Shown piece after piece: positions 1-34,376 of a stretch of DNA of 35,745 nucleotides. Position 1 is the stretch's first letter. Each line of letters begins with the position of its first letter. A program made the position numbers and the translations under genes. Under the pieces are notes generated by a model, which worked only from the letters and a program-made list of their open reading frames with translations, was not told where the DNA came from and searched no databases. The stretch comes from a virus (taxonomy: Duplodnaviria; Heunggongvirae; Uroviricota; Caudoviricetes). The DNA is taken from the IMG/VR virus record IMGVR_UViG_2548876857_000008. One strand, written 5' to 3'.

Positions 1-19
1 TACGACCTCGTTTCATTAA

Positions 20-400
20 TCACTTCCGGGGTGATTTTACTGCTTCAGGTTCATCAATGATAGAGAATAATGGGAGCTGTCGGCGGGCGCTTTCAGAACG
101 CTGGATCTTTTTCACCACTTTGTAGATCCACTGCAAAGTCAGGTTGTACTTCTTCGCCAGTTCGCGGTAGTTGCGTCCATCACACTCCTGCCAGATTTTA
201 TAGTCCCGCGCCGATGTCATGAAGACCATGCCTTTGGGCAGGTAAATGGTTTGTCCGCCCCATGCCTGCATCATGTGATTAGCCACAGCGACGGCAATCT
301 GTTCAGCGATATCATCTTCCATTCCAACCATTTCTTTCAATGTGTTTGCGACGTGGTGCGCAAGGTCAGCAAAGATTTCTGGCTGTTGCGGTTCTTTCAT
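20..400 (-). CDS. mor: Mor/C-family transcriptional activator (middle operon regulator-like)
   Basis: Conserved Mor-like blocks GGQTIYLPKG and IWQECDGRNYRELAKKYNLTLQWIYKVVKK. ATG at 400 overlaps the upstream stop (ATGA) and follows a GGGAGGGG ribosome-binding site; the ORF-track start at 427 has none. Confidence 0.8.
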   Translation of the reverse strand: MKEPQQPEIFADLAHHVANTLKEMVGMEDDIAEQIAVAVANHMMQAWGGQTIYLPKGMVFMTSARDYKIWQECDGRNYRELAKKYNLTLQWIYKVVKKIQRSESARRQLPLFSIIDEPEAVKSPRK

Positions 401-801
401 CTTCCCCTCCCGACACGTGCCAGCCATTTTTTCAGTTGTTCAATCACCTGGCTGGCCTGCTGATTGTTAAGCCACTCCAGCCGGGCGACGCCTGTCTGGC
501 GTTGTACGAACTTATTTAACGCCGACAAACTGCCATCTCTGACCGTACCGCTGGAAGTCAGTTCCTGCCATAACGCGCGGATCATCGCAGACTGCTTATC
601 ATAGGAAGGAGGCTCTTTAGATGTGACTTTGAAGCCCTGTTTTTTCATCACAGCGAAAGCCTTAGCCAGTTGTGAGTCGCTCATTACCCGTAACGATTCA
701 CTGCCGCAGTGTGTTTTAAGTAATTGTCGATACGTAGCCTCATCCAGTCGCAGCTCTCGCCGGGCAACATGGATAACCCGCAATAATTGTGCTCTGTTCA
801 T
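397..801 (-). CDS. gemA: GemA / Mu gp16-like early regulatory protein
   Basis: 134 aa directly upstream of Mor, as in Mu. Basic N-terminus (MNRAQLLRVIHVARRELRLDEATYRQLL) resembles the gp16/GemA family. GGAGG precedes the ATG at 801. Confidence 0.6.
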   Translation of the reverse strand: MNRAQLLRVIHVARRELRLDEATYRQLLKTHCGSESLRVMSDSQLAKAFAVMKKQGFKVTSKEPPSYDKQSAMIRALWQELTSSGTVRDGSLSALNKFVQRQTGVARLEWLNNQQASQVIEQLKKWLARVGRGR

Positions 802-855
802 TCATTCCTCCGTGAGGCGGTTATGACAGGCACAACCGCTGGATAATCAATGTGG

Positions 856-1149
856 CTACACGTCACCACATTGGCAGATCCCAACCATCCTTACGGTTAA
901 TACCGATGGCTCATTTGCGGGAGATATGCAGCTTTTATCGAGGCAGTAATCTTTGCCACGAGATCGGACAACCGCTGAATCATTATTGACGCTGGTTATT
1001 TTCCCTGTTTTTGTCGTTATTCTGATGCGAGTGTTACGGGCGCTCATAGATACTTGCTGCCAGGCAAAACTCACTTTGTCGCCAATGCGAAACGGTACTT
1101 CTTTCTCGGCATATTTCCCGCAGGCCGGGCATTTAACAAACATCATCAT
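856..1149 (-). CDS. hypothetical zinc-ribbon protein
   Basis: 97 aa with N-terminal CPAC and C-terminal CQCG motifs. Overlaps the upstream gene by 17 nt within the early operon. Confidence 0.5.
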   Translation of the reverse strand: MMMFVKCPACGKYAEKEVPFRIGDKVSFAWQQVSMSARNTRIRITTKTGKITSVNNDSAVVRSRGKDYCLDKSCISPANEPSVLTVRMVGICQCGDV

Positions 1150-1411
1150 TTACTACCCCCAACCATTCAGCCAGTCGCGCCAGCTTTTTCGCTTTGCGAT
1201 AATCGATTAGCTTTTCCATACCGTTCTGCCGGAACTGTTCGATCATGATTTCCACATCAGCCATTTCATCCGCCAGCACAGCTTCGTCACAGAAGCCTGT
1301 CAAACCACGCGCGGTTGCGGCGCTGAGTTCGGCTGCTTCCTCGGCTAGCTTCGCCAGTTGTTTCTCCGGCCCCCACTTGCGTAAGGCTGCACGGTAGATA
1401 AGCGTTTTCAT
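1133..1411 (-). CDS. MazG-like nucleotide pyrophosphohydrolase (small all-alpha NTP-PPase)
   Basis: 92 aa with acidic motifs LAEEAAELSAA and DEMADVEIMIEQF typical of MazG/HisE-type NTP pyrophosphatases. GGAGG precedes the ATG at 1411. Confidence 0.55.
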   Translation of the reverse strand: MKTLIYRAALRKWGPEKQLAKLAEEAAELSAATARGLTGFCDEAVLADEMADVEIMIEQFRQNGMEKLIDYRKAKKLARLAEWLGVVNDDVC

Positions 1412-1602
1412 GCGCCTACCTCCGTTGCCGGGGTTAATTCCATAGTGGGAATAAAGGCGTTATAAGCCTGCTCGCAGTGCGGACAGAGCAAAATTAAATT
1501 TACGCACCACTCCTTATATTCATCAGTCTGCAATAAGCTTGCTTGTTGAAAATCCAGTTCAGTGACTTCTTTTTTGCAGTACACACATTTAATCGTCGCC
1601 AT
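1408..1602 (-). CDS. hypothetical small zinc-binding protein
   Basis: Two Cys pairs (CVYCKK, CPHCEQ). ATG at 1602 with a GGGGGTG ribosome-binding site; the track start at 1617 is TTG. Coupled to its neighbours. Confidence 0.5.
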   Translation of the reverse strand: MATIKCVYCKKEVTELDFQQASLLQTDEYKEWCVNLILLCPHCEQAYNAFIPTMELTPATEVGA

Positions 1603-1603
1603 C

Positions 1604-2221
1604 TCACACCCCCGCAATATTCAGCACGACAGGCTGGTATTTATCGCTATCACCGACACGCTGATAAACCCGCACGTAACTTGTTGAGTTCACCACCTGC
1701 ACCGACTCGCCAATGGCCTCCATTGCCTTCAGCCAGCGTGGGTCGGTAATTTCATAGCGGCGCAGCGCCAGTACGCGCCCGGTGGAGATGTTGCCCTCTT
1801 TATCTTCTGCGAATGCTTTCTCCACGATGACCTTCAGCTCTGGCGTGGCCTGTGCCGTCCACTCATGCAGGCACTCATCAATCAAGTTACGGGCGGCTTG
1901 TAACCGTTCATCAAAGGCGATGTTTTCGGCAATCTGGCGCTGGATCTTGTAGCGACCATCAAATGAATGCAGGGTGATGTTGCCTTTCTTGCCTCCGGGG
2001 CGGGCATCATATTGTTCAACGGACAAATCAATAAACGCCTGTATATCGCCAAAACAGCGGTTTTTAAACTCAAGTAATTCAGCATTCATTTTCATTGCGT
2101 CGGCGACGATCTCCTTTACCAGCGCATCGCGTGCGCGGTCAATGGGCTTGATCATAGACTCGGGAACCAGACAACCTTTGGCGTCCTGCCAGTAACCTGC
2201 GGGGATAGTTTTTTCAGTCAT
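1604..2221 (-). CDS. hypothetical early protein (possibly DUF3164-like, as found in Mu-like phages)
   Basis: 205-aa ORF with ATG at 2221 and an upstream GGAG. Family assignment is from memory only. Confidence 0.55.
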   Translation of the reverse strand: MTEKTIPAGYWQDAKGCLVPESMIKPIDRARDALVKEIVADAMKMNAELLEFKNRCFGDIQAFIDLSVEQYDARPGGKKGNITLHSFDGRYKIQRQIAENIAFDERLQAARNLIDECLHEWTAQATPELKVIVEKAFAEDKEGNISTGRVLALRRYEITDPRWLKAMEAIGESVQVVNSTSYVRVYQRVGDSDKYQPVVLNIAGV

Positions 2222-2292
2222 AAAATAGTCTCCAGGGTGATTTCAGGGTGTGCGAAGCCTGCCGGGTTGACGGCATTTTTCTGCGACCTGAA

Positions 2293-2388
2293 TTAATTAA
2301 ATAAGGCTATGAATATAAAAATCAGTGTAGTTATAGCGCTGGCCCATAATACAAAACGGTCAGCCAGCGATATCTTGCGGTATTGCAT
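2293..2388 (-). CDS. candidate small hydrophobic peptide (31 aa) downstream of B
   Basis: Hand-translated MQYRKISLADRFVLWASAITTLIFIFIALFN. ATG at 2388-2386 preceded by GGAAAGGA; TAA at 2295-2293. Below the ORF-track size cut-off. Confidence 0.3.
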   Translation of the reverse strand: MQYRKISLADRFVLWASAITTLIFIFIALFN

Positions 2389-2423
2389 CACGTCCTTTCC
2401 GGTTAATTTGTGAAATACCATTT

Positions 2424-3548
2424 TCACACTCCTTTAATCACATCCGCATTCACCACCGGCACGCCGATATCAGCGGCCAGATTCATTGCGGCGATAACCA
2501 GATTCCCCAGCGCCAGCGGATAAAGCAGACTGACGTCACCGCGTCGGGATGAATTACATAATCGGGCGCGGATAGCATCGGCGGTGCTATCATCCAGCAC
2601 CTCGGAAACACCTTTCCCGGTACGCTGAAATTTGAACGCCAGAAACGCTTCCAGATAGTTATCCAGCGGCAGCAGTTCGACGACCTCGCAGCGCTGTACC
2701 ACTTCGCGCACCTCCTGATTACGTTCAGAAAGTTTCAGCTTTAGCTCCGGCTGGCCAATCAACACCACCGACAGCAGTTTTTTAAAGCCGTCCTCCAGCT
2801 CAAAGAACCGCTTCAAATGCTTGAGCGTCGGCACCGGTAGCGAGTGCGCCTCTTCAATAACCAGACAATGTGAGAACCCGGCGCGGGCCGACTCTTTCAG
2901 CACCCGGTGCAACTGGCGGTAACGGGCCTCCTGCGAGCGTTTGACGTTCTCCAGCGGTGCGATGGTGTTGATGATGGCCTCGGCAATCGACGCCGCTTTC
3001 AGAGTTTTGCCTTTGGCGTCGTTGTCTTCCATCGCAATGATGTACGGTTCGATGAGGATAACTGGCGCGTTTTCACGGTTGATGCGATCAGCCAGGTCAC
3101 GGCGTAGCGTGGTTTTCCCTGCGCCGGATTCGCCAACTACGGCGATAAATCCGCCATGTCGCGCGGTCTGATACAGTGCTTCACGCACGTAGCGGATATC
3201 TGGCGTGGTGAACACGTCGTCCGCACTCTGCATAACCTCATCGGCGAACGGGTCGCGGAACAACCCAAAATGCTTCTTCGCCGCTGGATTTAATACCTGT
3301 TTTGCCAGTAACATATTTTCGTCCTCACTGGATGATGTACCGGTGCAGGCGGTGGCCGCCGTCTGCGCCTCCTTCAGTTCAATACCTTTTTCTGCAAAAA
3401 ATGTGCTGATGCGCTCCCGTAGTTCTTCTGTTTTCGGCCACAGGCCGTGATTAACCATCTGCGCGATAACCGCTGCGGAAACTCCGGTAGCCTGTGCTAC
3501 TGCTGCCTGAGTGATGCCACGCTGGCGCAACTGTTGTTTAATCTGCAT
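2424..3548 (-). CDS. MuB-like transposition ATPase (AAA+ target-DNA activator)
   Basis: N-terminal helix-turn-helix (GITQAAVAQATGVSAAVIAQ) and Walker A VVGESGAGKTT. Immediately downstream of the transposase, as in Mu. AGGGGGAG precedes the ATG at 3548. Confidence 0.85.
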   Translation of the reverse strand: MQIKQQLRQRGITQAAVAQATGVSAAVIAQMVNHGLWPKTEELRERISTFFAEKGIELKEAQTAATACTGTSSSEDENMLLAKQVLNPAAKKHFGLFRDPFADEVMQSADDVFTTPDIRYVREALYQTARHGGFIAVVGESGAGKTTLRRDLADRINRENAPVILIEPYIIAMEDNDAKGKTLKAASIAEAIINTIAPLENVKRSQEARYRQLHRVLKESARAGFSHCLVIEEAHSLPVPTLKHLKRFFELEDGFKKLLSVVLIGQPELKLKLSERNQEVREVVQRCEVVELLPLDNYLEAFLAFKFQRTGKGVSEVLDDSTADAIRARLCNSSRRGDVSLLYPLALGNLVIAAMNLAADIGVPVVNADVIKGV

Positions 3549-3557
3549 AACTCCCCC

Positions 3558-5303
3558 TTAACCGCCGACTACGTTCAGTTGCACTCGGGCGGTAAGCTGC
3601 TGCGCGGCGGCGTCCAGTTCTTCTTCCGCCACGCCTTCTGGCCAGCGTTTCACCAGTTCCTGATACAGTGCGACGTTCCATTCCGGCAACCGTGCTTTCA
3701 GCGCCTTCGCCGCCTCGACGTGAGTCAGACGCCGGGCTTCAACGCGTGGAGCGCGTACCGGGGAATCCTGACCACGACGCGGCAGGAACGCGGGCAGTTC
3801 GCTGTCGGTGATGGGTTTATACGGGTCAAGCCTGCCGCCGAACGGCAGCGCCTTCGCTTTACGCGCCGCAGCCGCGTCCGTCTCGTTATCTGTTCCGGTA
3901 ACAATCTGCTCAATCTGTTTAGCCGCAGTCTGCGCGGGTGTATCGGCGTGGCGCTTGTGATTCTGGCCCAGCACCGCCGCGCCTTCGGCAAAGCCGTATT
4001 CGTCCTTGCGGACTTCCTCCACCAGGTGAAAATACTCGTGGCCATCGTCACCGATGAGCACTACCTGCGCGGCATCGCTGCGCCACGGATTGCGGGTGAT
4101 CATCAGTTTTTCACCCACCATCACATCTGGCACGGTGGAGACGTCGTATTCCGTACCCTGAAACGACACGCGCAGCTTCGGCGTTATCTTGCGGCTTTCC
4201 GGCGCGGCAACAGCCAGTTCGCGGCAGACCTCCACCGATGGCGCTTTGATAAGCTGCTGCGCGGTGATGGTCATCCAGACGTTACTACGCGACTTGCCGT
4301 GGCGGGTGTGAATCGCGGTGGCGTTGAAGTGCTGCCGCCACAGGCGCGCTTTGGCGTTCAGTTCCTCCAGGCTGTGAACCGGCTGGAACTTCAGCCCCGG
4401 TTCAAAGCGGCGTTCGATAATGTCGCGCGCCTTTTCCACCTGCCCGGTGGCGCGGGCGTTGTGGGCTTTATGCGCCACCACGTCAATGCCCAGCGAACGA
4501 CAGAGGTTCTTCGTCATAGCGGCGGTGTTGGCCGAGCCGGGGTCGAGATACAACATATGCGGCACGCCGTGGAGCACATCCGCGCCGCCGCGCTCCTGCA
4601 TGGCATTGATGAGAACGGAACAGAGATTTTCGCCAGACTCCGCCCCCATCACGTATTCAACGTAGATCCAGCCGCTGGTATGGTCGGTCAGTTCATAGCT
4701 CCATACCCGGTCACTGGCGATACGTTGCAGGTTCTTCGGCTTGTTTTTGTAGAACGTCGCGCTGTCCATCACCTGTAACCCGCGCTGGCCGTTGCTGAGG
4801 TAGTACAGCGTGCAGAGCGAGGCGTCGATTTCCCAGACGTGATTGGGGTGCAGACTGGCAAGCTCCGTCACTGGCGCGGGCTGGCTGAGTTGATCCGGGT
4901 GCAGGCCGTAGCCACGCAGCGCCCGGATGATGGTGCTTTCTGACAATGGCACCCACTCGCCGCTTTCCTCATCCAGCCGCCCGGCGTCAATCTCGCCGTT
5001 GGCGCGTAACATCTCCACGGCATCAATGACGGAATACAGGCGCTTGCCGTTCTTACGGGTGGCTTCCGTCAGCGTAGCGGAAATCATCACCGCCTCATCG
5101 CGGGTCAGCGCGGTTTTTCCGGCGTCGGTGCGGCGCTTGCGTTTATCGGTCACGGCAACCTCCTTTATTCTGCGTAACAGCGTGGCGCGGGACAGGCCAA
5201 GTTCCGCGCAGGCGGCAGTGTAGATTGCGCCGCGTGCGCCATGCCCGGCCTGCCGTGCAGCCTGAGCAACAGCAACTAAGCGTTCGGTCATGACGGCGCT
5301 CAT
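3558..5303 (-). CDS. MuA-like DDE transposase (rve/integrase-core superfamily)
   Basis: N-terminal helix-turn-helix, then candidate D-D-E residues (HVWEIDAS, LYLDPGSANT, ATGQVEKARD; D to E spacing 36 aa). Lies between Ner and B. ATG at 5303 has a GGAAGG site 9 nt upstream; the track start at 5312 has zero spacing. Confidence 0.8.
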   Translation of the reverse strand: MSAVMTERLVAVAQAARQAGHGARGAIYTAACAELGLSRATLLRRIKEVAVTDKRKRRTDAGKTALTRDEAVMISATLTEATRKNGKRLYSVIDAVEMLRANGEIDAGRLDEESGEWVPLSESTIIRALRGYGLHPDQLSQPAPVTELASLHPNHVWEIDASLCTLYYLSNGQRGLQVMDSATFYKNKPKNLQRIASDRVWSYELTDHTSGWIYVEYVMGAESGENLCSVLINAMQERGGADVLHGVPHMLYLDPGSANTAAMTKNLCRSLGIDVVAHKAHNARATGQVEKARDIIERRFEPGLKFQPVHSLEELNAKARLWRQHFNATAIHTRHGKSRSNVWMTITAQQLIKAPSVEVCRELAVAAPESRKITPKLRVSFQGTEYDVSTVPDVMVGEKLMITRNPWRSDAAQVVLIGDDGHEYFHLVEEVRKDEYGFAEGAAVLGQNHKRHADTPAQTAAKQIEQIVTGTDNETDAAAARKAKALPFGGRLDPYKPITDSELPAFLPRRGQDSPVRAPRVEARRLTHVEAAKALKARLPEWNVALYQELVKRWPEGVAEEELDAAAQQLTARVQLNVVGG

Positions 5304-5305
5304 GG

Positions 5306-5605
5306 TCAGCATCCTTCCGGTAGTTCGGGAACTAACATCCAGTGGGTGATCTGTTTTGCCGGGTACGTTTCACTGGTGCAGTGAAACTCGCCATCAATAT
5401 AGTTAGCGGTTTCCACGCCGTAGCCATCACAGACCAGCACAAGGTCATAGTCACCAGGCAGTTGTGCGTCAGTGGCTATCCACGGTGAGGCCAGCGCATC
5501 CTTAAAAGCGACTCTCAGCAGTCGGCCACCGAGGATATCGGCGTTAAAGTGGTAACTCGGCTCCTGCGGAGCCTTAGCGAAATCAATAACTAATGTGCGG
5601 ATCAT
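5306..5605 (-). CDS. hypothetical early protein
   Basis: 99 aa; its ATG at 5605 overlaps the upstream stop (ATGA). Confidence 0.5.
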   Translation of the reverse strand: MIRTLVIDFAKAPQEPSYHFNADILGGRLLRVAFKDALASPWIATDAQLPGDYDLVLVCDGYGVETANYIDGEFHCTSETYPAKQITHWMLVPELPEGC

Positions 5606-6537
5606 GCGGCGTTCTCCTTATCGGTGGTCATCCAGTCCGGGCGTTCGATTTTAGGCGTGGGGTTTGTTACCCACTCCGGCGCGGCGTCACTGCGTGGTTC
5701 GACAGCAAGGCCAAACTCTTCACGCAGATAAACGGTGGCGCTGTCAATCTGGCATAACAGCCCGGTCATAAAGGCGTGAGGGTGCGTCTGAACCAGTGCC
5801 GAATGATGTTGATTCAGGACGGTAAAAGCTTCGTGGAGCTTGCCGCGAATAATGGCCTCGGCTTCGAAGGCAATAGCCATGACTTCCTTGCGCAACTGCT
5901 CGTCCTCCACATCCGGGGGCGGCGGCGCGATGCGGGATTTTTTGGCAAGCTGGGTGGAGAGGTTGTCGATTTTGCTGTTCTTGTCAGCCAGAACGCGGCG
6001 CTGGGCGTCGGCGTCCTCGCGAGCTTCACGCAGGGCGGCGCGGAGTTCGCGACTGGTCATACGGTCGATATCGTCGAGGGTTAGCCCGGCAACGGTGCCG
6101 CCTTCGGTCAGGGCAGTGAGTTCGTCGTCATCTTCTGCCATTAACTCGAATAGTTTGGTTTTACCCAAATGTGCCAGCGCTGGCATATTTGATTTCAGCG
6201 CTGGAGATAAATATTTGGTTGATGCCTGCATCATCCTTACTGACGTGCGATATGGTAAGCCCAGTTCCTTTTCAATAAGTTCGATAAACTCCCCATGCGG
6301 CTCATTCTCTTTCAGAATCACCAGGCGCTTACCCGCTTCCAGCATTGCCTCGGCGCTCTGCGACATATAAAACCGAGCCTCATGCACCACTCGGTCGCGC
6401 TCATACGGAAGGCCGTCGCCGAACTGCTGCATAATTTCGATGCGGTGTTCCGCCAGCGCGTTCAGGCTGACGTTCAGTTCAGTGTTCAGCGGTGCGTCCG
6501 GCACCAGTTCAACAGGTGGTGATTTTTGACGTGCCAT
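5602..6537 (-). CDS. hypothetical early protein (311 aa, acidic middle, coiled-coil-like centre)
   Basis: AAGGAG 7 nt before the ATG at 6537. No catalytic motif recognised. Confidence 0.55.
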   Translation of the reverse strand: MARQKSPPVELVPDAPLNTELNVSLNALAEHRIEIMQQFGDGLPYERDRVVHEARFYMSQSAEAMLEAGKRLVILKENEPHGEFIELIEKELGLPYRTSVRMMQASTKYLSPALKSNMPALAHLGKTKLFELMAEDDDELTALTEGGTVAGLTLDDIDRMTSRELRAALREAREDADAQRRVLADKNSKIDNLSTQLAKKSRIAPPPPDVEDEQLRKEVMAIAFEAEAIIRGKLHEAFTVLNQHHSALVQTHPHAFMTGLLCQIDSATVYLREEFGLAVEPRSDAAPEWVTNPTPKIERPDWMTTDKENAA

Positions 6538-6548
6538 TAACTTGCTCC

Positions 6549-6848
6549 TTAGCGACTGCCAGCCAGCAACCGCTGATTCATTTCATTCAGCCTGTCCTGA
6601 GCGCGTGTGACTTCCGTCGCGTGGGCGTGGGCGATTTGCAGCATCGCCATACTCATGGCGAAGCGCCCATTTTCCAGCCGTTGTACCAGTCCCTCTTCGA
6701 TCAGAGTGTCAGCGGCGCGGGTGATATTGGCCGGGGATTCATGCAACGCCGCCGCCAATTCGCCATTGGACAACCCAGTGAGCGAGTAGCCTTTCAGGGC
6801 TTTGAGTACGCGCAGGATACGTGCGCCGGAAGTAGAGGTGGGTTTCAT
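6549..6848 (-). CDS. winged-helix DNA-binding protein (IclR-N-type HTH)
   Basis: RILRVLKALKG...LSNGELAAALHESPANITRAADTLIEEGLVQR matches the IclR-type HTH pattern. ATGA overlap with the upstream gene. Confidence 0.55.
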   Translation of the reverse strand: MKPTSTSGARILRVLKALKGYSLTGLSNGELAAALHESPANITRAADTLIEEGLVQRLENGRFAMSMAMLQIAHAHATEVTRAQDRLNEMNQRLLAGSR

Positions 6849-7084
6849 GCATGCATCTCCAGTGGTTGGACATGGCGGCTGATGTAGTGGTCAGAACAGG
6901 TGATGTTGCCTGGATCGTCCGGGCCGTTCAGCCCGGCAAACTCATCAACCAGAAATACGCTATATGCGGATAATCCCTGCTGACGCGGAACGCGGCGAAT
7001 AAACGTGCCGTGGTATGGAGTTGATTGGCCAAATGAGGGCGTAATCAGTACGCGCTGGCTGGGGGTTAAATCGGTAGGTTTCAT
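6845..7084 (-). CDS. hypothetical early protein
   Basis: 79 aa with AAGGAG 6 nt before the ATG at 7084. Confidence 0.45.
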   Translation of the reverse strand: MKPTDLTPSQRVLITPSFGQSTPYHGTFIRRVPRQQGLSAYSVFLVDEFAGLNGPDDPGNITCSDHYISRHVQPLEMHA

Positions 7085-7094
7085 TGCGCTCTCC

Positions 7095-7331
7095 TTAGTT
7101 AGGTTCGTGCAGGATGCCCGGCACGATCTCTTTGCCGATGGTGCGGGACAGCTCTTTCAGAATGCGAAACGTCAGCCGTCCACGCGGCAAATCCTGTTTA
7201 CCCGCCCAGCGATCAACAGCTTGCGTAACCGTCCGGGGTTCGTAGCCGGTACTGATGGCGAACTGGCGAAAGTTGCTGCCCTGCTCAATCAGTCGCGCGT
7301 GGATTTGGTGTTTGTTCATTAGTTTGTTCAT
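7095..7331 (-). CDS. ner: Ner/Nlp-family DNA-binding regulator
   Basis: 78 aa, first gene of the leftward early operon and divergent from the repressor. FRQFAISTGYEPRTVTQAVDR resembles the Ner/Nlp HTH. GAGGG precedes the ATG. Confidence 0.8.
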   Translation of the reverse strand: MNKLMNKHQIHARLIEQGSNFRQFAISTGYEPRTVTQAVDRWAGKQDLPRGRLTFRILKELSRTIGKEIVPGILHEPN

Positions 7332-7412
7332 TTGTTCCCTCTGAGCTATTATGTACTCAATTGGGTTTATTGTACGTACTCAAACGGGCAAGTCAACGAC
7401 TAATATGCACAA
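7332..7412. promoter_or_regulatory. divergent early/repressor control region with repeated GTAC-core elements
   Basis: 81-bp gap between divergent ner and repressor starts. GTACTCAA occurs at 7353-7360 and 7376-7383, with TGTAC at 7352 and 7371. A TAATAT -10-like hexamer lies at 7401-7406. Confidence 0.45.
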
Positions 7413-7823
7413 ATGAACATAAAAGAAAGACTCAAAAAAATACTCGCTGACAAAGCGTTATCAATCACTGATGCTGCCGCACAGTGCGATATCCCATATC
7501 GTTCTCTACAAAACTATCTGCGTGGCGAGCGAGAACCAAATGCGGAGGCATTGATCTCAATAGGTACCCATTTGGGTATAAATATTGATTGGCTGCTCAC
7601 CGGCAGAGGAGGAATGTATCTGTCTGAACATGCGGATGTTTTGACTGAGCAGCCGGAATACAGCCATGCCGATTTGAAGTTACTGGAATTTTTGAATCAG
7701 TTGGAACCGGATGTACGAAAGGATTTGTTACGCAGTGCTGAAGAAAAACAGCGAGTGGCCGCCCTAGAAAAAAGATTAGAGGAATTGGCTTTAGAACTCG
7801 AAAGCCTAAAACGTTCGGCGTAA
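7413..7823 (+). CDS. XRE-family HTH repressor (c/cI-like)
   Basis: N-terminal HTH (LSITDAAAQCDIPYRSLQNYLRGEREPNAEALISIGTHLGINIDWLL) and coiled-coil C-terminus. Divergent from ner. No S24 peptidase domain. Confidence 0.7.
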   Translation: MNIKERLKKILADKALSITDAAAQCDIPYRSLQNYLRGEREPNAEALISIGTHLGINIDWLLTGRGGMYLSEHADVLTEQPEYSHADLKLLEFLNQLEPDVRKDLLRSAEEKQRVAALEKRLEELALELESLKRSA

Positions 7824-7861
7824 AGTGTTCTCATTAAGAACAAAACATGAAGGACTATGTT

Positions 7862-8383
7862 ATGAAACACTTTTTCTTACCTTTGGGGGTTTGTGCGCTG
7901 TTGTTGTCGGGATGTGGTGATGACGATGTTACACAGCCATCTGCATCGACAATGTTTACTGTTGAAACCGATAGTCCGGTAGTGAAGCGCGAATTGCCCT
8001 TTATTCGCCAACAGTGTCCAGGACTGGATAAATACGCAGCAAACTTTGATAAATTTAAGGTCTACGACGACACGATGCGTCCGGTGACAACGGTGGAGTT
8101 TCACGTCAAGAATGAGAACAGCATACCCGGTAATTACACCGCCTCTGATCATACCTGTTTCCTTTTCATCTCCAACAATACCCACGAAGTGAAGATTTCA
8201 AAATCCGCCTGCCAGTCTGTTTGCTTCGATAAAGCGGATGTGCCTGGTGGGGATCTGGTTGTGAAACTGGATAAAGAAAGAGTTCCTATGACTGCTGATA
8301 AGAAGCCGCCGCGCGAGGGGTGCCTGATGGTTTACTCGCCAGAGCCAAACGGGGATTACTGGACGTGTCCAAGACAAGATTAA
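7862..8383 (+). CDS. lipoprotein (signal peptide with lipobox LLSGC)
   Basis: MKHFFLPLGVCALLLSGC then a Cys-rich mature part. AGGA lies 7 nt before the ATG at 7862. Begins 38 bp after the repressor stop. Confidence 0.7.
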   Translation: MKHFFLPLGVCALLLSGCGDDDVTQPSASTMFTVETDSPVVKRELPFIRQQCPGLDKYAANFDKFKVYDDTMRPVTTVEFHVKNENSIPGNYTASDHTCFLFISNNTHEVKISKSACQSVCFDKADVPGGDLVVKLDKERVPMTADKKPPREGCLMVYSPEPNGDYWTCPRQD

Positions 8384-8460
8384 ACATGTTGTAAACAAAA
8401 CAAAAAAGCGTGCAGACAGCACGCATTTACTATCTAACTCTACTGAAGGTTTCAGATTCT

Positions 8461-9492
8461 ATGCCAGCAAATGAACCTGCAAATGCAATCGTTGTAAATC
8501 ATGTGGTTATTCACCTTTTAGATAAAGAGCCGCATGGGGTGACATCCTTACAGCTTAGCCCAGCAGAGAGTGGCGTCACCGCAGCATCACAACGCTTAAT
8601 AGATGATATCTGTGGGAAATATGCAGGGCGAATGGGGAAAGGTTATGGCCATTTTGAAGATGACCCTGACAATTACCCGATGCAAACAATCGTATCAGAC
8701 TATTTAGCTCAAGAGCATCCTGATGATTTTTACCGTAGCTCCTGCCGCATGATTCGTCATCTGGAATCTCGGATTCAAACAACACCACTCGCTACTGGTG
8801 GCTATGTTCTATTCGCCCACATTACGATGAATCAACACGAGCATATTTTAGTTGCCATGTTAAGCCCCACGACGGGAACTGCGGTTAACGATGCCTTTGC
8901 TATCCAGGAAAGTGTCTACCTTGATATCGACAAGCTACGTGTGGCGGGGCGTATTGACATTACGTCCTGGCAATCAGGTGCCGAACGTTATATAAGTTTC
9001 CTGAAAGGGAGCAATGCTGTATCTGGTTACTTTAAGCAGTTCCTGGGCTGTAACGATGTTTTGATCGCCAAGCGTGAAACAGAGAAATTGCGGGATGCGT
9101 TGAAAGAGTTTGCGACTGAGCAAGGGCTTGACCCCGCACGTCGAGAGGCTTTTCTGCAAACGGCCCATGACCATTTGAAGCAACTGAGCAAAGATGGTGA
9201 GCCTGTAGATCTGACAACCTTTGTGAACGCAGTCTGGCCACAAGAACCAGAACTGCTATCGACTAAGCTGGCCAACCAAGAACTGGAACTGTCGGATGGT
9301 TTTGTCCCAGATGGACGCGTACTAAAAGGAATCATTTCCTTTAAAGGAAAGTCCAATCATTGGGAGCTAAAGTTTGATCGTGCTGGTCTTCAAGATGGTT
9401 CAATTGAGTATAATCGTGATCAGGATGTAATCATTCTAAGGAATATTCCTGATAGCTTCAGAGAAGAGATACTGGATGAGGTTGAGGAGTGA
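8461..9492 (+). CDS. NdpA/YejK-like nucleoid-associated protein homolog (NA37 family)
   Basis: GGYVLFAHITMNQHEHILVAMLS and YISFLKGSNAVSGYFKQFLGC closely parallel E. coli YejK ([23 protein letters not shown] and [23 protein letters not shown]). Length is about the same. The track start at 8410 is GTG; ATG at 8461. Confidence 0.7.
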   Translation: MPANEPANAIVVNHVVIHLLDKEPHGVTSLQLSPAESGVTAASQRLIDDICGKYAGRMGKGYGHFEDDPDNYPMQTIVSDYLAQEHPDDFYRSSCRMIRHLESRIQTTPLATGGYVLFAHITMNQHEHILVAMLSPTTGTAVNDAFAIQESVYLDIDKLRVAGRIDITSWQSGAERYISFLKGSNAVSGYFKQFLGCNDVLIAKRETEKLRDALKEFATEQGLDPARREAFLQTAHDHLKQLSKDGEPVDLTTFVNAVWPQEPELLSTKLANQELELSDGFVPDGRVLKGIISFKGKSNHWELKFDRAGLQDGSIEYNRDQDVIILRNIPDSFREEILDEVEE

Positions 9493-10697
9493 GTATCAGT
9501 TTTGAGCAACTGGTGGGATTGTACAGGCAGATTACTTTCGGTAACGATATGGCCGAAGGTACGCTGGTGCTTACCCCAGAATCCTGCGAGTTGCTCAACG
9601 CTTTGCTTGAGGACACCGATACATATGGGATCTCTCTGGCACAAGGTGAAGTAGTGGCTGGCCAGCAGGTGTCGCTTTTTGTGAACGCCCCAAAGACAAA
9701 GCTAGGTCTGCTATGCCGTAATTTGGCGGCTTTGTTAAAGTCGCCAAAACACCAAAGCGAGGAACCTTCCCGCTACTACCTGATCGACAGCCAATTTTAT
9801 AGTTCGGATGCGCCAACATCTGTAATTGAAAACTACCGCACTATCTTAACATTTCTGCGCCTGCTTAAAGAAAAGTCGGCATACTTTGATACCAGTGCAT
9901 ATGAATGCGTTTTTTTCCGCGCCGATGTATTTAAATTACCTATACGTTACAGTGCAGAAACCGTAGAAAATCTTGATAAAACGACACTCGATGAACTCAT
10001 TCAGCAGTTTTCTGACGACACACACAAAGAGCAGAAACTCTCGCTTTTAATTGAAAGCATCCAGTTAATCGGTCAGGAAACGGAAAACAATAAAGTCTTT
10101 GAGTATGCACTGAAGAACATTGATAAATTAAAAGTTGAGTTCGATAAGGGTTATCGCCTCTTCACTTCTGGGTTCTCATACGAAAAGGTTCTGGATGAAC
10201 TTAGAACCGCCAAAGTTGAAGAAATGGGACGTATCCATAAAGTCTTTTCAGATATCCAAAACCAGATACTGGGTATCCCAGTCGCAACCATTATCGTCGC
10301 GACACAAATCAAGAAAGCAAGTGGTGATGTCTATCAAACCATTATCAATAGCGCAGTTTTTTTAGGGGCCTTTGTTTTTGCTACGTTGGTTATGTTGACT
10401 TTGTTCAACCAGTTACAGACGTTAACTGCTATCAAAGAAGAACTTCGACATAAAAAGACTCAGGTTGATAAAAAGTATGCATCAATAAAAAATGACATTG
10501 ATAGTATCTTTTGCTCTGTACGTAAACGTCTTTGCCGTCAGGTTATCGCGTTCTGGTTTATTATTATGTTCCTTGTTGTCGCTATTATATCGACAGGATT
10601 AATTTACCTATACTGCACATACCCTGAAACATGGAATATCTTGGTTACAAAAGTGATGTCATGGCGGCATCACTTGAGTAATAAGCCCACTCCTTAA
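9489..10697 (+). CDS. hypothetical membrane protein (soluble N-domain of about 270 aa plus two C-terminal TM helices)
   Basis: GTG start overlaps the NdpA-like stop (GTGA). Hydrophobic helices IPVATIIVATQI...AVFLGAFVFATLVMLTLF and VIAFWFIIMFLVVAIISTGLIYLY. No enzymatic motif seen. Confidence 0.65.
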   Translation: MSISFEQLVGLYRQITFGNDMAEGTLVLTPESCELLNALLEDTDTYGISLAQGEVVAGQQVSLFVNAPKTKLGLLCRNLAALLKSPKHQSEEPSRYYLIDSQFYSSDAPTSVIENYRTILTFLRLLKEKSAYFDTSAYECVFFRADVFKLPIRYSAETVENLDKTTLDELIQQFSDDTHKEQKLSLLIESIQLIGQETENNKVFEYALKNIDKLKVEFDKGYRLFTSGFSYEKVLDELRTAKVEEMGRIHKVFSDIQNQILGIPVATIIVATQIKKASGDVYQTIINSAVFLGAFVFATLVMLTLFNQLQTLTAIKEELRHKKTQVDKKYASIKNDIDSIFCSVRKRLCRQVIAFWFIIMFLVVAIISTGLIYLYCTYPETWNILVTKVMSWRHHLSNKPTP

Positions 10698-10758
10698 ACC
10701 CCTTTAAAAGCCTTCCTGCCTACCATTCCGCACACTGCCTCCATCACCCAATGGAGGC
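10693..10758 (+). promoter_or_regulatory. candidate late promoter element (dyad motif plus start-site hairpin) before the lysis genes
   Basis: CTTAAACCCCTTTAAAAGCC at 10693-10712. Perfect 8-bp hairpin GCCTCCAT/ATGGAGGC at 10737-10758 contains the GGAGG site and the first ATG. Confidence 0.45.
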
Positions 10759-10762
10759 ACTT

Positions 10763-11053
10763 ATGAAAACTTCTCTTTTCCCGCGTTTATCCGGCTGGCT
10801 GGTGGCATCGGTGGTGTTGTTCGCGCTGATTGCGCTGATTTCCCCGCAGCAGCTTCCGGTCGTTGTTTACAAACTGAGCCTGATCTCGCTGGCGGCGGTG
10901 CTGGGCTACTGGCTGGATCGCAGCCTGTTTCCCTATGCGCGGCCAAATTATTTTCAGTCAGCGGAAAATGAACAACGTCTCTTTGCCGCCGCCATGCTGC
11001 GCCGTGCGGTGATTGTCGCGGCGGTGTGTCTGGCCGTGGCGATGGGGCTGTAG
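10763..11053 (+). CDS. putative holin or lysis membrane protein
   Basis: 97 aa with two or three hydrophobic helices, immediately before the transglycosylase gene. ATG at 10763 has GGAGG 5 nt upstream; ATG at 10751 is an alternative. Confidence 0.4.
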   Translation: MKTSLFPRLSGWLVASVVLFALIALISPQQLPVVVYKLSLISLAAVLGYWLDRSLFPYARPNYFQSAENEQRLFAAAMLRRAVIVAAVCLAVAMGL

Positions 11054-11055
11054 CC

Positions 11056-11790
11056 ATGACGCTGCATATGTACTGGCCGCAGGTTGTCTGGTCTGTGACG
11101 GCGCTGCTGGGGATGGGAATGGCGCTGGCGCGTCACGGGCAACCGCGCACCGATAAACACAATTTCTGGTACCAGTCGCTGGCGGTACTGATTGCAGGCT
11201 GGCTGCTCTGGTGCGGCGGTTTTTTTAGCCAGGCCAATGCCGCCGAACCGCCCGCTTCCGCCAAACCTTACCGCGCCGAACTGGTGCGTAATGCCCGCGC
11301 GGTATGGGGGATGGATGCGCCTGTCGCCGATTTCGCCGGGCAGTTCCAGCAGGAATCCGACTGGAATCCCGCCGCCCGTTCACCCGTTGGTGCGCAGGGG
11401 ATGGCGCAGTTTATGCCCTCCACTAGCGACTGGATCAGCCAACTGCTTCCCGAACTCCGCGCCCGAGAGCCGTTTAACCCGTCGTGGGCCATCCGGGCGC
11501 TGGTGCAATACGACCAGTGGTTGTGGCAGCGCGTCAGCGCCCGCGATGGTTGCCAGCGAATGGCATTCACCTTAAGCGCCTATAACGGCGGTTTAGGCTG
11601 GGTGAACCGCGATAAAAAGCTGGCGGCGCAGCGCGGGCTGGATGCCGCCGTCTGGTTTGACGCGGTGGCGACGGTCAACGCCGGGCGCAGCGCCGCCAAC
11701 TGGCGCGAGAACCGGGGTTATCCGCAACGCATCCTGTACCAGAACGCGCCGCGCTATCTGTCATGGGGAGGGGCTAACTGTGTTCGATAA
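11056..11790 (+). CDS. endolysin, lytic transglycosylase (SLT domain) with N-terminal hydrophobic segment(s)
   Basis: SLT signature QQESDWNPAARSPVGAQGMAQFMPST (catalytic Glu, AQGxMQ). N-terminus VVWSVTALLGMGMALA and LAVLIAGWLLWCGGFFSQANA suggests a signal-anchor or signal peptide. Confidence 0.75.
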   Translation: MTLHMYWPQVVWSVTALLGMGMALARHGQPRTDKHNFWYQSLAVLIAGWLLWCGGFFSQANAAEPPASAKPYRAELVRNARAVWGMDAPVADFAGQFQQESDWNPAARSPVGAQGMAQFMPSTSDWISQLLPELRAREPFNPSWAIRALVQYDQWLWQRVSARDGCQRMAFTLSAYNGGLGWVNRDKKLAAQRGLDAAVWFDAVATVNAGRSAANWRENRGYPQRILYQNAPRYLSWGGANCVR

Positions 11791-24360: not shown

Positions 24361-27135
24361 GTGGCTGCTGAATTTTCAATCGGTGTTCTTATTAGTGGCG
24401 CAGTCACTGGCGCATTTCGTTCTGCTATTGGAGGAACCCAGCGAGCGTTAAACGATCTCCAATCCACCACGCAGCGATTGCAAAACCGTCAGGCCGCGCT
24501 GACGCAGGCGATGACACGTTACGGGCAGGCAGGTATTAGCAGTACATCCCGGCTCAACAACGAATTACAGCAAGTCAGTCGCACAATGGCGCGGCTGGAA
24601 AGCCAGCAAAATAAATTATCCAGCGCAACGGCGCGTAGCCAGGCGATGCGTTCGCAGCGGATGGATCTTTACGCCCAGGGTGCAGAGACCTACGCGCTGG
24701 CCAGAACGATGTCGGCCCCTCTGGTGTCGTCAGTGAAAACCTATGCGGGGTTTGAATCAGGGCTGCGGGATATTGCCGTGACCGGGGATCTGGACAGTAA
24801 ACAGGAAGCGGCGATCGATAACGCCATCCGTCAGGCAGCGGGTAAAGTCAACCAGTTGCAGGAAACGCTACTCGGTGGCGTGAATCAACTGGTAGCCGAT
24901 GGTATGAACCCGGAGAAAGCGGCGGGAATGGTGGATTTGCTTGGTAAAACCGCCACGGCCACCAAGGCTGATATGACCGATCTGGCAAAAATGACTTTCG
25001 CTTTTAGCGATGCCTTGAAGATTAGCGATGGAAAGGAGATGCAGGAAGCCTTTGCAATGGCAGCGGTCGGAGCAAAGACCGGCTCCTTTGAACTGAAAGA
25101 TATGGCAAAGGCATTGCCTACCCTGACAAAAAGCTTTGCGGCTAAAGGTATTACGGGTAAGGAAGCGATTAAAGAAATTGTCGCCTCTCTCGAAGCTGCA
25201 AAAGGCTCTGGTTCGGCAGAAGAAGCCGTGACCAATATGACCAACTGGATGGGCGCAATGACGCGCGGCGATACCGTCAAGAAATATGAAAAGGCGGGCG
25301 TAAATTATGAAGCGTCGATGAAAGATTATGTCGCCAAAGGTTATTCGCAATATGAAGCCTCGCTGATGATTGCTGACCGCTTTATTAAAGGTAAAGGCGA
25401 TGCCTTTATAAAACAGTGGCAGGAAGCGGGGGCACGTGGCGACGGTGAGTCGCAACAGAAGTTGATGGAGTCGTTTGGTCTGTCGGAGGTTTTTACCGAT
25501 ATTCAAACCGTCAATCATCTGCTTTCCATGCGTCAGAACTGGGATCAATATCAGTCGAATAAAGCCAAAATGGGTGACCCGGCATCACAGAATGTGCTGG
25601 ATACTGATTTTAATAAGCAAAACGATACCCTGGAAGCCCGCTGGCGAAGCTCGCAGGTAGCGATGAATGAGATGGCAATCAGTATCGGTAGTTCTCTACG
25701 CCCGGCACTGGTCGAATTATCGGAAAGTCTGCTGCCAGTAATGAGTTCTTTTGCAAAATGGCTTTCAGCTAACCCGGAGATGGTGGCGAATATAGCCAAA
25801 CTACTGGCCGGATTTATTGCATTCAAAGCGGCGACGGTCGGTAGCAAGCTGGCTCTGAATATGATGTTGTCGCCGTTTGTGGATTGTATTAAAGCGGTAA
25901 CGTTGCTTAACACGAAATGGCTGCTTCTGAAAACAGCCTTTTCGTCTGGCGGCAAACTGGCAGGCATCACTAAGTTGTTCGGCTCGCTAGCGCGTGGTGC
26001 CTTGTCATTAGGCAAAATCCTTGCCGGTGGATTAATGCGTGGCGTGATGATGGCCGCCCGTGCCGTAATGTTTCTGGGCCGTGCGCTGCTGATGAATCCC
26101 ATCGGGTTGATTATCACTGGCATCGCGGCAGCCGCGTATCTGATTTATCGCTACTGGGGGCCCATTTCCGGCTTCTTTAAACGGCTGTGGGCGCAGGTCA
26201 CGGTAGCGTTTCGCGGGGCGTGGAGCGGCATCAAAGGTATCTGGAGTGGCGTGTCGGGCTGGTTCTCTGGTATCTGGGCGCAAATCAAAACCGCATTCAG
26301 CGGTGGGATTGGCGGCGTGGCAAAGCTGATTACCAACTGGTCGCCGCTGGGCCTGTTCTATAAAGCTTTTGCCGGAGTGATGAAATACTTCGGTATCGAT
26401 ATGCCGAAGAACTTTACCGATTTTGGCGGTAATCTGATTAACGGTCTGATGAACGGTATCGGCAATGCGCTGACTGCTGCGAAAGAGACGGTCGTTAACT
26501 TTGGTAACTCGATTTCAGGCTGGTTTAAGGAGACGCTGGGCATTCACTCCCCGAGCCAGGTGTTTGCCGGGTTCGGCGACAATATCGCGCAAGGGGCCGC
26601 TATCGGTATCAACCGCACCGCCCCGGATGCGATTTCCGCCAGCCAACAGATGGCGGCGGCGTTAATTCCCCCGTTGCTGGATATCCGCGTTCCGGGTCTG
26701 GATGTTGCCGCAATACCACAGCGACCACCTGTTGCGGGTGGCATCGCGCCTCAACTCAACCCACTGCTGCCGAAAGTCGCACCGCCCACCATTGTGCCAG
26801 CCCCCACTGCGGCGGGTATGGCGCTGGCTGGGGCGGCGGGCGCGGTGTTATCTCGCCGCAAACCGCTGTCGCCAGTGCCACCAAAACCCGCCGTACCTGC
26901 CGTTCCTGAACTGCCGAAAAGTACCGCACCAGCCGCCAAAGGCCGCAATGCCAGTGCGCGTGTGCCGGGGCAGTCATCCGGGGTGAATGTGACCTTTGCG
27001 CCGCAAATTACCATCAAAGGCGCGGCATCGACGACCGAGGGCGAAATCACCTCTGCGCTGAAACTGAGCCTGCACGAACTTGAAAAGATGATGGAGCGGA
27101 TTATGGCGCGTCGTGAACGCCGGGAGTATGCATAA
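24361..27135 (+). CDS. tail tape measure protein
   Basis: 924 aa, largely helical, with central hydrophobic Gly/Ala segments and a Pro/Ala-rich C-terminal region. GTG start after GGGAG. Follows the chaperone gene. Confidence 0.85.
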   Translation: MAAEFSIGVLISGAVTGAFRSAIGGTQRALNDLQSTTQRLQNRQAALTQAMTRYGQAGISSTSRLNNELQQVSRTMARLESQQNKLSSATARSQAMRSQRMDLYAQGAETYALARTMSAPLVSSVKTYAGFESGLRDIAVTGDLDSKQEAAIDNAIRQAAGKVNQLQETLLGGVNQLVADGMNPEKAAGMVDLLGKTATATKADMTDLAKMTFAFSDALKISDGKEMQEAFAMAAVGAKTGSFELKDMAKALPTLTKSFAAKGITGKEAIKEIVASLEAAKGSGSAEEAVTNMTNWMGAMTRGDTVKKYEKAGVNYEASMKDYVAKGYSQYEASLMIADRFIKGKGDAFIKQWQEAGARGDGESQQKLMESFGLSEVFTDIQTVNHLLSMRQNWDQYQSNKAKMGDPASQNVLDTDFNKQNDTLEARWRSSQVAMNEMAISIGSSLRPALVELSESLLPVMSSFAKWLSANPEMVANIAKLLAGFIAFKAATVGSKLALNMMLSPFVDCIKAVTLLNTKWLLLKTAFSSGGKLAGITKLFGSLARGALSLGKILAGGLMRGVMMAARAVMFLGRALLMNPIGLIITGIAAAAYLIYRYWGPISGFFKRLWAQVTVAFRGAWSGIKGIWSGVSGWFSGIWAQIKTAFSGGIGGVAKLITNWSPLGLFYKAFAGVMKYFGIDMPKNFTDFGGNLINGLMNGIGNALTAAKETVVNFGNSISGWFKETLGIHSPSQVFAGFGDNIAQGAAIGINRTAPDAISASQQMAAALIPPLLDIRVPGLDVAAIPQRPPVAGGIAPQLNPLLPKVAPPTIVPAPTAAGMALAGAAGAVLSRRKPLSPVPPKPAVPAVPELPKSTAPAAKGRNASARVPGQSSGVNVTFAPQITIKGAASTTEGEITSALKLSLHELEKMMERIMARRERREYA

Positions 27136-33770: not shown

Positions 33771-33773
33771 CAC

Positions 33774-34376
33774 ATGAAATATGCGTATTTTGAACCCTCA
33801 TCAATGAAGGTTTTAGACTGGCTGGATACCGAACAATTATCCTTTGTTTTGCCTGACAGTGTTGTTTCGGTAACTGATGAGCAATGGTGTTATCGTGATC
33901 GTGAATGCTGGGTCAATATTTCAACCACAGAAATCATCACAACACCTCCACCCGGTGATTTTTATCGGCTTGATGGTGATAAGTGGGTGTATGACGCAAC
34001 CAGCTATACTGCTGCGCTAGACGGTGCTAAGTCACTAGTTGTTAAGGCAATCAAGGCGCTACGCGATGAAGTCACTGCCGATTATATCATTATCGGCGAC
34101 TATCACTTTCACAGCGATGCCAGCAGTCGTATCCAGCAAATGTCACTCACCAGGATGGGGCAAACGAAGCAAATCCCCAAAGGCTTAATGTGGCAGACCA
34201 AAAACCTCGGACTTCTCGAGCTAACCAATGAAATCGCGGCGCAGTTTGAGTCCATTACAATGGATCACGATATGCGCCTCTTTGCCAATGCCCAGCGACA
34301 TATTGCCGCCGTTGAGGCGCTGGAAGATATCCTGGCAGTTCAGGAGTATGACTACTCTACGGGGTGGCAACCATGA
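33774..34376 (+). CDS. putative tail fibre assembly chaperone
   Basis: 200 aa immediately after the fibre gene; AT-richer than the structural genes. Confidence 0.5.
   Translation: MKYAYFEPSSMKVLDWLDTEQLSFVLPDSVVSVTDEQWCYRDRECWVNISTTEIITTPPPGDFYRLDGDKWVYDATSYTAALDGAKSLVVKAIKALRDEVTADYIIIGDYHFHSDASSRIQQMSLTRMGQTKQIPKGLMWQTKNLGLLELTNEIAAQFESITMDHDMRLFANAQRHIAAVEALEDILAVQEYDYSTGWQP

Follow-up and report, generated by a model that had tools for sequence, protein, structure and literature searches.

A nucleoid-associated protein and membrane protein gene pair as a probable anti-phage module of the DS-1/type II PANGU kind in a Mu-like prophage of Escherichia

Genes of the cassette and their conserved pairing

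The IMG/VR record IMGVR_UViG_2548876857_000008 is a stretch of 35,745 nucleotides of viral DNA (hereafter the window, i.e., this stretch at its full length), which is a BcepMu-like transposable (Mu-like) prophage of Escherichia. Between its repressor gene and its holin gene, positions 7862–10697 hold three open reading frames on the + strand, which encode a lipoprotein, an NA37/YejK-like protein and a 402-residue membrane protein, at the positions given in an earlier reading made from the letters alone (hereafter the original prediction). We report here that the second and third genes (8461–9492 and 9489–10697) probably constitute a two-gene anti-phage module of the kind described as DS-1 and type II PANGU, carried as cargo of the Mu-like prophage. 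We put the probability of this reading, which draws on sequence homology and on analogy with the two known systems, at roughly three in four.

The product of the second gene (8461–9492, + strand) is a YejK-like nucleoid-associated protein (NAP) of the NA37 family with 343 residues. Among the profile searches that the original prediction had proposed, Pfam PF04245 matches this protein over profile positions 1–324 of 325 (E=6.2e-74, 249.7 bits against a cut-off of 24.6), and further matches were found to phrog_3767 (E=6e-101) and, over residues 11–337, to YejK of PDB entry 9be2 (E=4.7e-30). The fold family is thus common to the window protein and chromosomal YejK/NdpA over the full length. However, the NCBIfam YejK model NF001557 gives 189.3 bits, below its equivalog cut-off of 341, and, in contrast to the chromosomal protein, the window protein is mobile, AT-rich, always coupled to a membrane partner and located in prophage cargo. 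These comparisons indicate a divergent paralogue of chromosomal YejK, not its orthologue.

The third gene (9489–10697, + strand) encodes the 402-residue partner, which matches phrog_5023 (E=8.5e-87) and contains hydrophobic segments at residues 283–309 and 346–379. An AlphaFold2 (AF2) model built with 42 homologues, with a predicted local distance difference test score (pLDDT) of 87.7, shows an alpha/beta domain at approximately residues 1–210, a long helix (211–260), a short helix (262–273) and very long helices at 281–329 and 331–397. The protein may cross the membrane two or three times, and its topology is uncertain. The loop at 310–345 is rich in Lys/Arg, and the net charge changes from −11 (pI 4.9) in residues 1–270 to +9 in residues 271–402; the N-terminal domain is net negative in 41 of the 42 family members, with a median of −9. 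In the family alignment, the conserved motif FSYxK...KIHKxFSDIQNQILGIPVATIIVATQ is followed by N287, G293, N307 and Q308. The invariant residues are concentrated in the juxtamembrane and membrane region, which points to the membrane part as the likely functional core, and the high-confidence model together with this motif provides concrete targets for mutagenesis. The partner family is large: in a profile search of 1.84 billion representatives, 1241 clusters (50% identity) had E<=1e-3, and 373 of these reached E<=1e-30. A search of PDB sequences with the family profile gave a best E of 0.5, which was set aside as a chance match.

The two genes share a GTGA overlap at 9489–9492 (+ strand), in which the stop codon of the NA37 gene meets the start codon of the partner gene (the sequence reads ...GAGGAGTGAGTATC), and which is predicted to couple their translation. 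The arrangement recurs outside the window. The NA37 gene lies immediately upstream of the partner gene in all seven GenBank phage records that contain the partner, out of 43 such records with an NA37 homologue. A pattern scan of IMG/VR returned 39 loci, one of which ends at the contig edge; an NA37 homologue abuts the partner gene in all 38 evaluable ones, and the distance from NA37 stop to partner start is −14 to +7 nt in 37 of these. None of the 45 evaluable loci has a partner without an NA37 gene. Moreover, the identities of both proteins to their window counterparts co-vary (Spearman 0.87). The NA37 and partner genes are therefore a conserved two-gene module, in agreement with the original prediction that the overlapping genes function together; the check on recurrence of the pair that it had proposed thus has a positive outcome.

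The loci in which the pair recurs comprise other Mu-like prophages; a Citrobacter freundii lambdoid prophage (loci L009–L011), where it lies between the antiterminator Q and holin genes on the opposite strand; a Pseudomonas P4-like island, where it adjoins a restriction endonuclease; and a Methylotenera island, where it lies beside DNA methyltransferases. The latter three settings are typical of defence cargo. Near the pair in the Citrobacter freundii prophage, we also observed genes for a colicin-domain protein and an SLFN/AlbA_2 protein, to which one variant adds a reverse transcriptase and an SMC/AAA protein. Candidate defence or competition cargo thus seems to be densely clustered in this region.

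In the window, the GC content of 7862–10697 is 0.441, versus 0.550 for 1–7331 and 0.567 for 11054–35745; the holin gene has a value of 0.58 and the SLT gene 0.64. The repressor gene, at 0.44, is as AT-rich as the cassette, showing that the low-GC block begins in the immunity region. Among 5426 complete E. coli genomes, 650 contain a related prophage, counted by a related portal and head-morphogenesis region, and 21 contain the pair, of which 2 show 97% DNA identity and the other 19 form a lineage with 67%; low GC of 0.41–0.46 was counted toward the non-core status of the pair. The contents of the slot between repressor and holin gene likewise vary. KP12_2 has a lipoprotein gene, a Dam methylase gene and a hypothetical gene there, ABU 83972 has a Dam methylase gene and three hypothetical genes, and a Klebsiella prophage has a hypothetical gene, a Dam methylase gene and the pair. 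A comparison of the window slot (7332–10750) with seven further loci (L001, L002, L005, L006, L012, L054, L055) showed varying sets of lipoprotein, opposite-strand Dam methylase, DUF2441, hypothetical and NAP-pair genes. The slot is thus a cargo hotspot of this Mu-like prophage family, and the pair is cargo, not core. The original prediction had read the cassette as acquired AT-rich cargo and had named presence in all relatives as core phage genes as the finding that would speak against this; the windowed GC values and the varying slot contents both come out on the side of cargo.

The first gene of the cassette (7862–8383, + strand) encodes a lipoprotein of 173 residues that starts MKHFFLPLGVCALLLSGC, with a lipobox LSGC (Cys18) and an AAGGA Shine-Dalgarno sequence 6 nt upstream of the gene. 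Its family is narrow, with 30 clusters in which every named member is enterobacterial, and no structural relative was found for its AF2 model (pLDDT 81). The gene lies directly 3′ of the repressor gene with or without the pair downstream. KP12_2, Phi06_2974 B and Apirhabdus have this gene but not the pair; conversely, 19 E. coli genomes and most of the 38 IMG/VR loci have the pair but not this gene. At one IMG/VR locus, L017, the lipoprotein is 83% identical to that of the window and the pair 98% identical, a gap which indicates a mosaic history. The lipoprotein gene is a separate, independent lysogen-side moron and does not belong to the conserved pair, so that the three-gene cassette cannot be kept as the single unit that was originally proposed.

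Relationship to DS-1 and PANGU

DS-1 (DefensePredictor system 1, D390) is a validated two-gene unit of E. coli, which consists of an NA37 protein (WP_000355468.1) and a 404-residue hypothetical protein (WP_000150292.1) (Science 2026; bioRxiv January 2025; PMC13092281). Its reported protection, as the negative logarithm of the efficiency of plating, is 7.6 for Bas1, 2.7 for Bas26 and 1.7 for Bas3 and T3 (PMC13092281). We tested homology on the DS-1 sequences printed in the supplement of that study (PMC13092281). The window NAP aligns with DS-1A in BLASTP at E=5e-11 (23% identity), the partner aligns with DS-1B at E=4e-9 (25% identity), and hhalign of the partner family profile against DS-1B gives a probability of 96.1% and E=3e-9 over 265 columns. 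NCBIfam release 20.0 holds equivalog models for both DS-1 proteins, and both window proteins match these models significantly at scores below the equivalog level, DS1_1_antiphage (NF053868) at E=2.2e-18 and DS1_2_antiphage (NF053869) at E=8.3e-21. Both window proteins are therefore remote but significant homologues of DS-1A and DS-1B, not equivalogs. In the profile search of the partner family, DS-1 and the window pair fall into one large superfamily of partner proteins, the one with 1241 clusters at E<=1e-3.

The two systems also agree in layout. The gene order is the same, with the NA37/YejK protein first and a partner of about 400 residues second in one tightly spaced unit, although the junction is a 2-nt gap in DS-1 and a 4-nt overlap in the window. 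The charge pattern of DS-1B (N-terminal domain −8, C-terminal region +4) resembles that of the window partner. DS-1 is prophage cargo as well, but of lambdoid prophages, between Q and holin, whereas the window pair lies in a Mu-like prophage after the repressor. We observed that DS-1 in E. coli lambdoid prophages (loci L058 and L059) and the Citrobacter homologue of the window pair occupy an identical moron slot: both lie in the interval from Q to holin, on the opposite strand. The index of a contig collection lists DS-1A, as an exact sequence, in 10,333 blocks, suggesting that DS-1A is very widespread.

PANGU systems, in which YejK-like NAPs sense phage-induced genome degradation, were described in a preprint of April 2026 (bioRxiv 10.64898/2026.04.06.716658). 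Type II PANGU consists of the NAP Pag2A and of Pag2B, a protein with an acidic 'DNA-mimicking' (DMK) domain at its N-terminus and a transmembrane domain at its C-terminus. The E. coli representative (PANGU-Ecu, 'E. coli upec') protects against T4, with both genes required, and growth arrest at high multiplicity of infection together with a fall in phage titre was interpreted by the authors as abortive infection (bioRxiv 10.64898/2026.04.06.716658). On T4 infection, Pag2A leaves the nucleoid, and it binds the acidic domain with a dissociation constant KD of 19 nM; how Pag2A engages and activates Pag2B is described by the authors as undetermined. Single-gene constructs are not toxic, and the NAP is an activator. 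The systems were found via defence-island linkage, the word 'prophage' is absent from the preprint, and neither DefensePredictor nor DS-1 is mentioned in it (bioRxiv 10.64898/2026.04.06.716658).

The window pair shares with type II PANGU a YejK-like NAP, a partner whose N-terminal domain is acidic by net charge and whose C-terminal region is transmembrane (as seen in both the hydrophobic segments and the AF2 helices), a bicistronic arrangement and the host genus. PANGU genes were taken as bicistronic when neighbouring genes lie less than 40 bp apart, and those of the window overlap. The pair is thus a divergent homologue of DS-1 that appears to have the defining architecture of type II PANGU. 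In it, the NA37 protein would be the sensor, corresponding to Pag2A and DS-1A, and the partner the effector, corresponding to Pag2B and DS-1B. The layout of DNA-binding sensor and membrane effector of abortive infection that was originally suggested agrees with what is described for DS-1 (PMC13092281) and type II PANGU (bioRxiv 10.64898/2026.04.06.716658). However, the accompanying statements that no described defence system built on an NA37 protein was known, and that the pair is the most likely novel system, are outdated, since DS-1 and type II PANGU have been described and validated and the NCBIfam 20.0 models match both window proteins. Instead, the pair extends a defence class of 2025–2026, in which a nucleoid protein serves as the genome-damage sensor, by a divergent lineage that is naturally carried by prophages, and it links two independently named systems. 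It also shows that prophages carry such modules in their moron slots, which lie 3′ of the repressor gene and before holin in Mu-like phages, and from Q to holin in lambdoid ones.

Type I PANGU (Pag1A with the GRel toxSAS Pag1B) follows the same principle of a NAP sensor and an acidic, NAP-binding effector domain, but its effector is a cytoplasmic pppGpp-synthesising toxSAS, whereas that of the window is a membrane protein, and a domain search of the window partner found no toxSYNTH domain. Kiwa, which consists of the membrane protein KwaA and the DNA-binding protein KwaB, follows the general logic of a membrane protein combined with a DNA binder. We rejected a Kiwa-like reading because there is no homology, because PADLOC, which includes Kiwa models, gave no match, and because gene order and domains differ.

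Proposed mechanism and competing explanations

By analogy with type II PANGU, the module could act as follows. In the lysogen, the YejK-like protein would be bound to the nucleoid, and its partner would be an inner-membrane protein whose acidic N-terminal domain faces the cytoplasm. Degradation of the host chromosome by a superinfecting phage would free the NAP, which would bind the acidic domain of the partner; the membrane region of the partner would then harm membrane integrity, so that the infected cell would no longer support phage growth (abortive infection). We infer by this analogy that protection, its dependence on both genes, the abortive phenotype, NAP relocation and nanomolar NAP binding extend to the window lineage, and that the membrane domain acts as outlined.

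The defence reading is well supported by homology, architecture and context, but several observations weigh against it. Identity to the DS-1 proteins is 23–25%, and the NCBIfam scores are 66.4 bits for the NAP and 74.5 bits for the partner, against equivalog cut-offs of 330 and 315, respectively. The zinc-ribbon (NinF-like) extension of about 40 residues at the N-terminus of DS-1A has no counterpart in the window NAP. The link to type II PANGU is one of architecture, and the 'DNA-mimic' character of the acidic domain was judged by net charge alone. Further, a Foldseek search gave no significant structural relative for the partner (E>0.5), and no solved structure matches it significantly. Finally, PADLOC-DB 2.0.0, which includes Kiwa, Zorya and Abi families and is older than DS-1 and PANGU, contains no component match: neither the lipoprotein nor the NA37 protein was matched, and the partner gave only a chance-level match to PDC-M64B (E=0.017).

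A more specific form of the defence reading, which we regard as speculative and rather improbable, is that the window lineage forms a sub-type of its own, built into the immunity operon of a Mu-like phage, which possibly reveals the mode of action of type II effectors. Under this sub-type reading, NAP binding could gate an oligomeric pore made by the effector. This idea comes from the polar conserved core rich in Gln, Asn and Thr, combined with the succession of cytoplasmic alpha/beta domain, stalk helix and C-terminal membrane helices, a layout reminiscent of CorA and ClyA. As a second possibility, placement in the repressor operon could let a transposable phage, which itself shreds the host chromosome through replicative transposition, avoid triggering its own genome-damage sensor on induction.

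Other explanations of the pair appear less probable still. The NAP could be a nucleoid protein of mobile elements that tunes host or prophage transcription, or that cuts the fitness cost of an AT-rich prophage, with the membrane protein as an accessory tether. Such a role has been proposed for plasmid- and island-borne NdpA-like proteins, e.g., Pnd of pCAR1, and it would fit both the location of the NA37 gene in an AT-rich immunity region and the many phages with an NA37 gene but no partner, given that 7 of the 43 GenBank records have one. However, the NA37 gene accompanies the partner in every one of the 45 evaluable loci, the junctions are tight and the two proteins co-diverge, homologous pairs are proven defensive, and the pair moves as a unit among unrelated elements, which together make nucleoid tuning an unlikely account. 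Superinfection exclusion through a block of DNA entry, in which the membrane protein would act at the injection site and the DNA binder would capture incoming DNA while the cell survives, is slightly less likely again. The vicinity of the repressor is a frequent site of temperate-phage exclusion genes, the pair does combine a membrane protein with a DNA binder, and the effector mechanism of type II is still unresolved; but type II PANGU shows growth arrest at high multiplicity of infection with a fall in titre, read as abortive, and the trigger maps to phage-induced genome degradation.

It is very unlikely, in our view, that lipoprotein, NAP and membrane protein act as one three-component system. 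The genes are contiguous on one strand, and the block from 7850 onward is kept at 94% in two E. coli prophages with a different repressor; on the other side stand the occurrence of lipoprotein and pair each without the other, the mosaic at L017, and the hairpin-containing 77-nt spacer that sets the lipoprotein gene apart from the pair. An overlapping two-gene operon on mobile elements with a potentially toxic membrane product could also be a toxin–antitoxin or addiction module that stabilises the prophage, the membrane protein being the toxin and the NAP the antitoxin. This we consider equally remote and rejected, as PANGU single-gene constructs are non-toxic and the NAP there is an activator rather than an antitoxin. 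We therefore retain an anti-phage module of the DS-1/type II PANGU kind as the preferred reading of the pair.

Prophage context and transcription signals

Exact matches to the NA37 and partner proteins of the window are on record in 231–237 Escherichia contigs, and the RefSeq annotation of the 94–97% identical E. coli A35 prophage gives the cassette genes the identical three reading frames and lengths. A megablast search of 7300–11100 against GenBank phages returned no match. The cargo and lysis genes are 94% identical in E. coli A35 and OkiPb01694, with similarity beginning exactly at window position 7850, whereas the repressor and immunity region of both differ from those of the window; the repressor gene thus ends at a mosaic junction.

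The early genes of the window, up to 7331 on the − strand, include those of a MarR/IclR-like regulator, a small DNA-binding protein, an ExeA-type ATPase and a DDE transposase; the A35 prophage, 86–97% identical to the window, contains gp16 and Mor homologues as extra early genes. Divergent from this operon is the repressor gene (7413–7823, + strand), whose product is a helix-turn-helix (Cro/CI-type) repressor (Pfam HTH_3 E=4.7e-8; Phage_CI_repr E=1.5e-4; PHROG transcriptional repressor families). The repressor is context and lies outside the defence module. Within the region of divergent promoters that separates the early operon from the repressor gene, the motifs TTATGTACTCAA and TTGTACGTACTCAA are repeated at 7345–7385, and these repeats are possible operator sites. 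A promoter-like site on the − strand, TTGACT-16-TACAAT, was observed at 7396–7369. On the other side of the cassette, the holin, SLT transglycosylase and late genes begin at about 10751 on the + strand (holin start 10751/10763).

Expression of the cassette in the lysogen from the repressor operon is plausible from its position. However, a + strand scan for sigma-70 promoters of the cassette found none that was convincing (7 promoter-like sites versus a chance expectation of 6.4), and a + strand scan for intrinsic terminators from the cassette to the holin gene found none. The lysis and late genes lie immediately downstream on the same strand without a recognisable terminator, and strand alone is thus no proof of lysogen-only expression. 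A scan for terminator-like sequences located a 6-bp GC-rich hairpin at 8408–8424 (no strand assigned), within the 77 nt that separate the lipoprotein gene from the NA37 gene. With a T-run on the − strand side, the hairpin looks like a terminator of antisense transcription or a remnant of a cargo junction.

At the downstream end of the cargo, a 9-bp hairpin (UGCCUCCAU/AUGGAGGCA) at 10736–10759 on the + strand covers the GGAGG Shine-Dalgarno sequence of the holin gene, at the point where the cargo gives way to the lysis and late genes. RNA folding of 10660–10760 gives a minimum free energy of −22.1 kcal/mol (z=−2.0), and the hairpin is not followed by a T-run. Judging from its predicted fold, this hairpin could keep the holin untranslated on transcripts that read through from the repressor/cargo operon. 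Elsewhere in the window, further local GC dips were observed at 2001–2500 (0.46), 25001–26000 (0.49) and 33501–34000 (0.47), which may be additional acquired segments.

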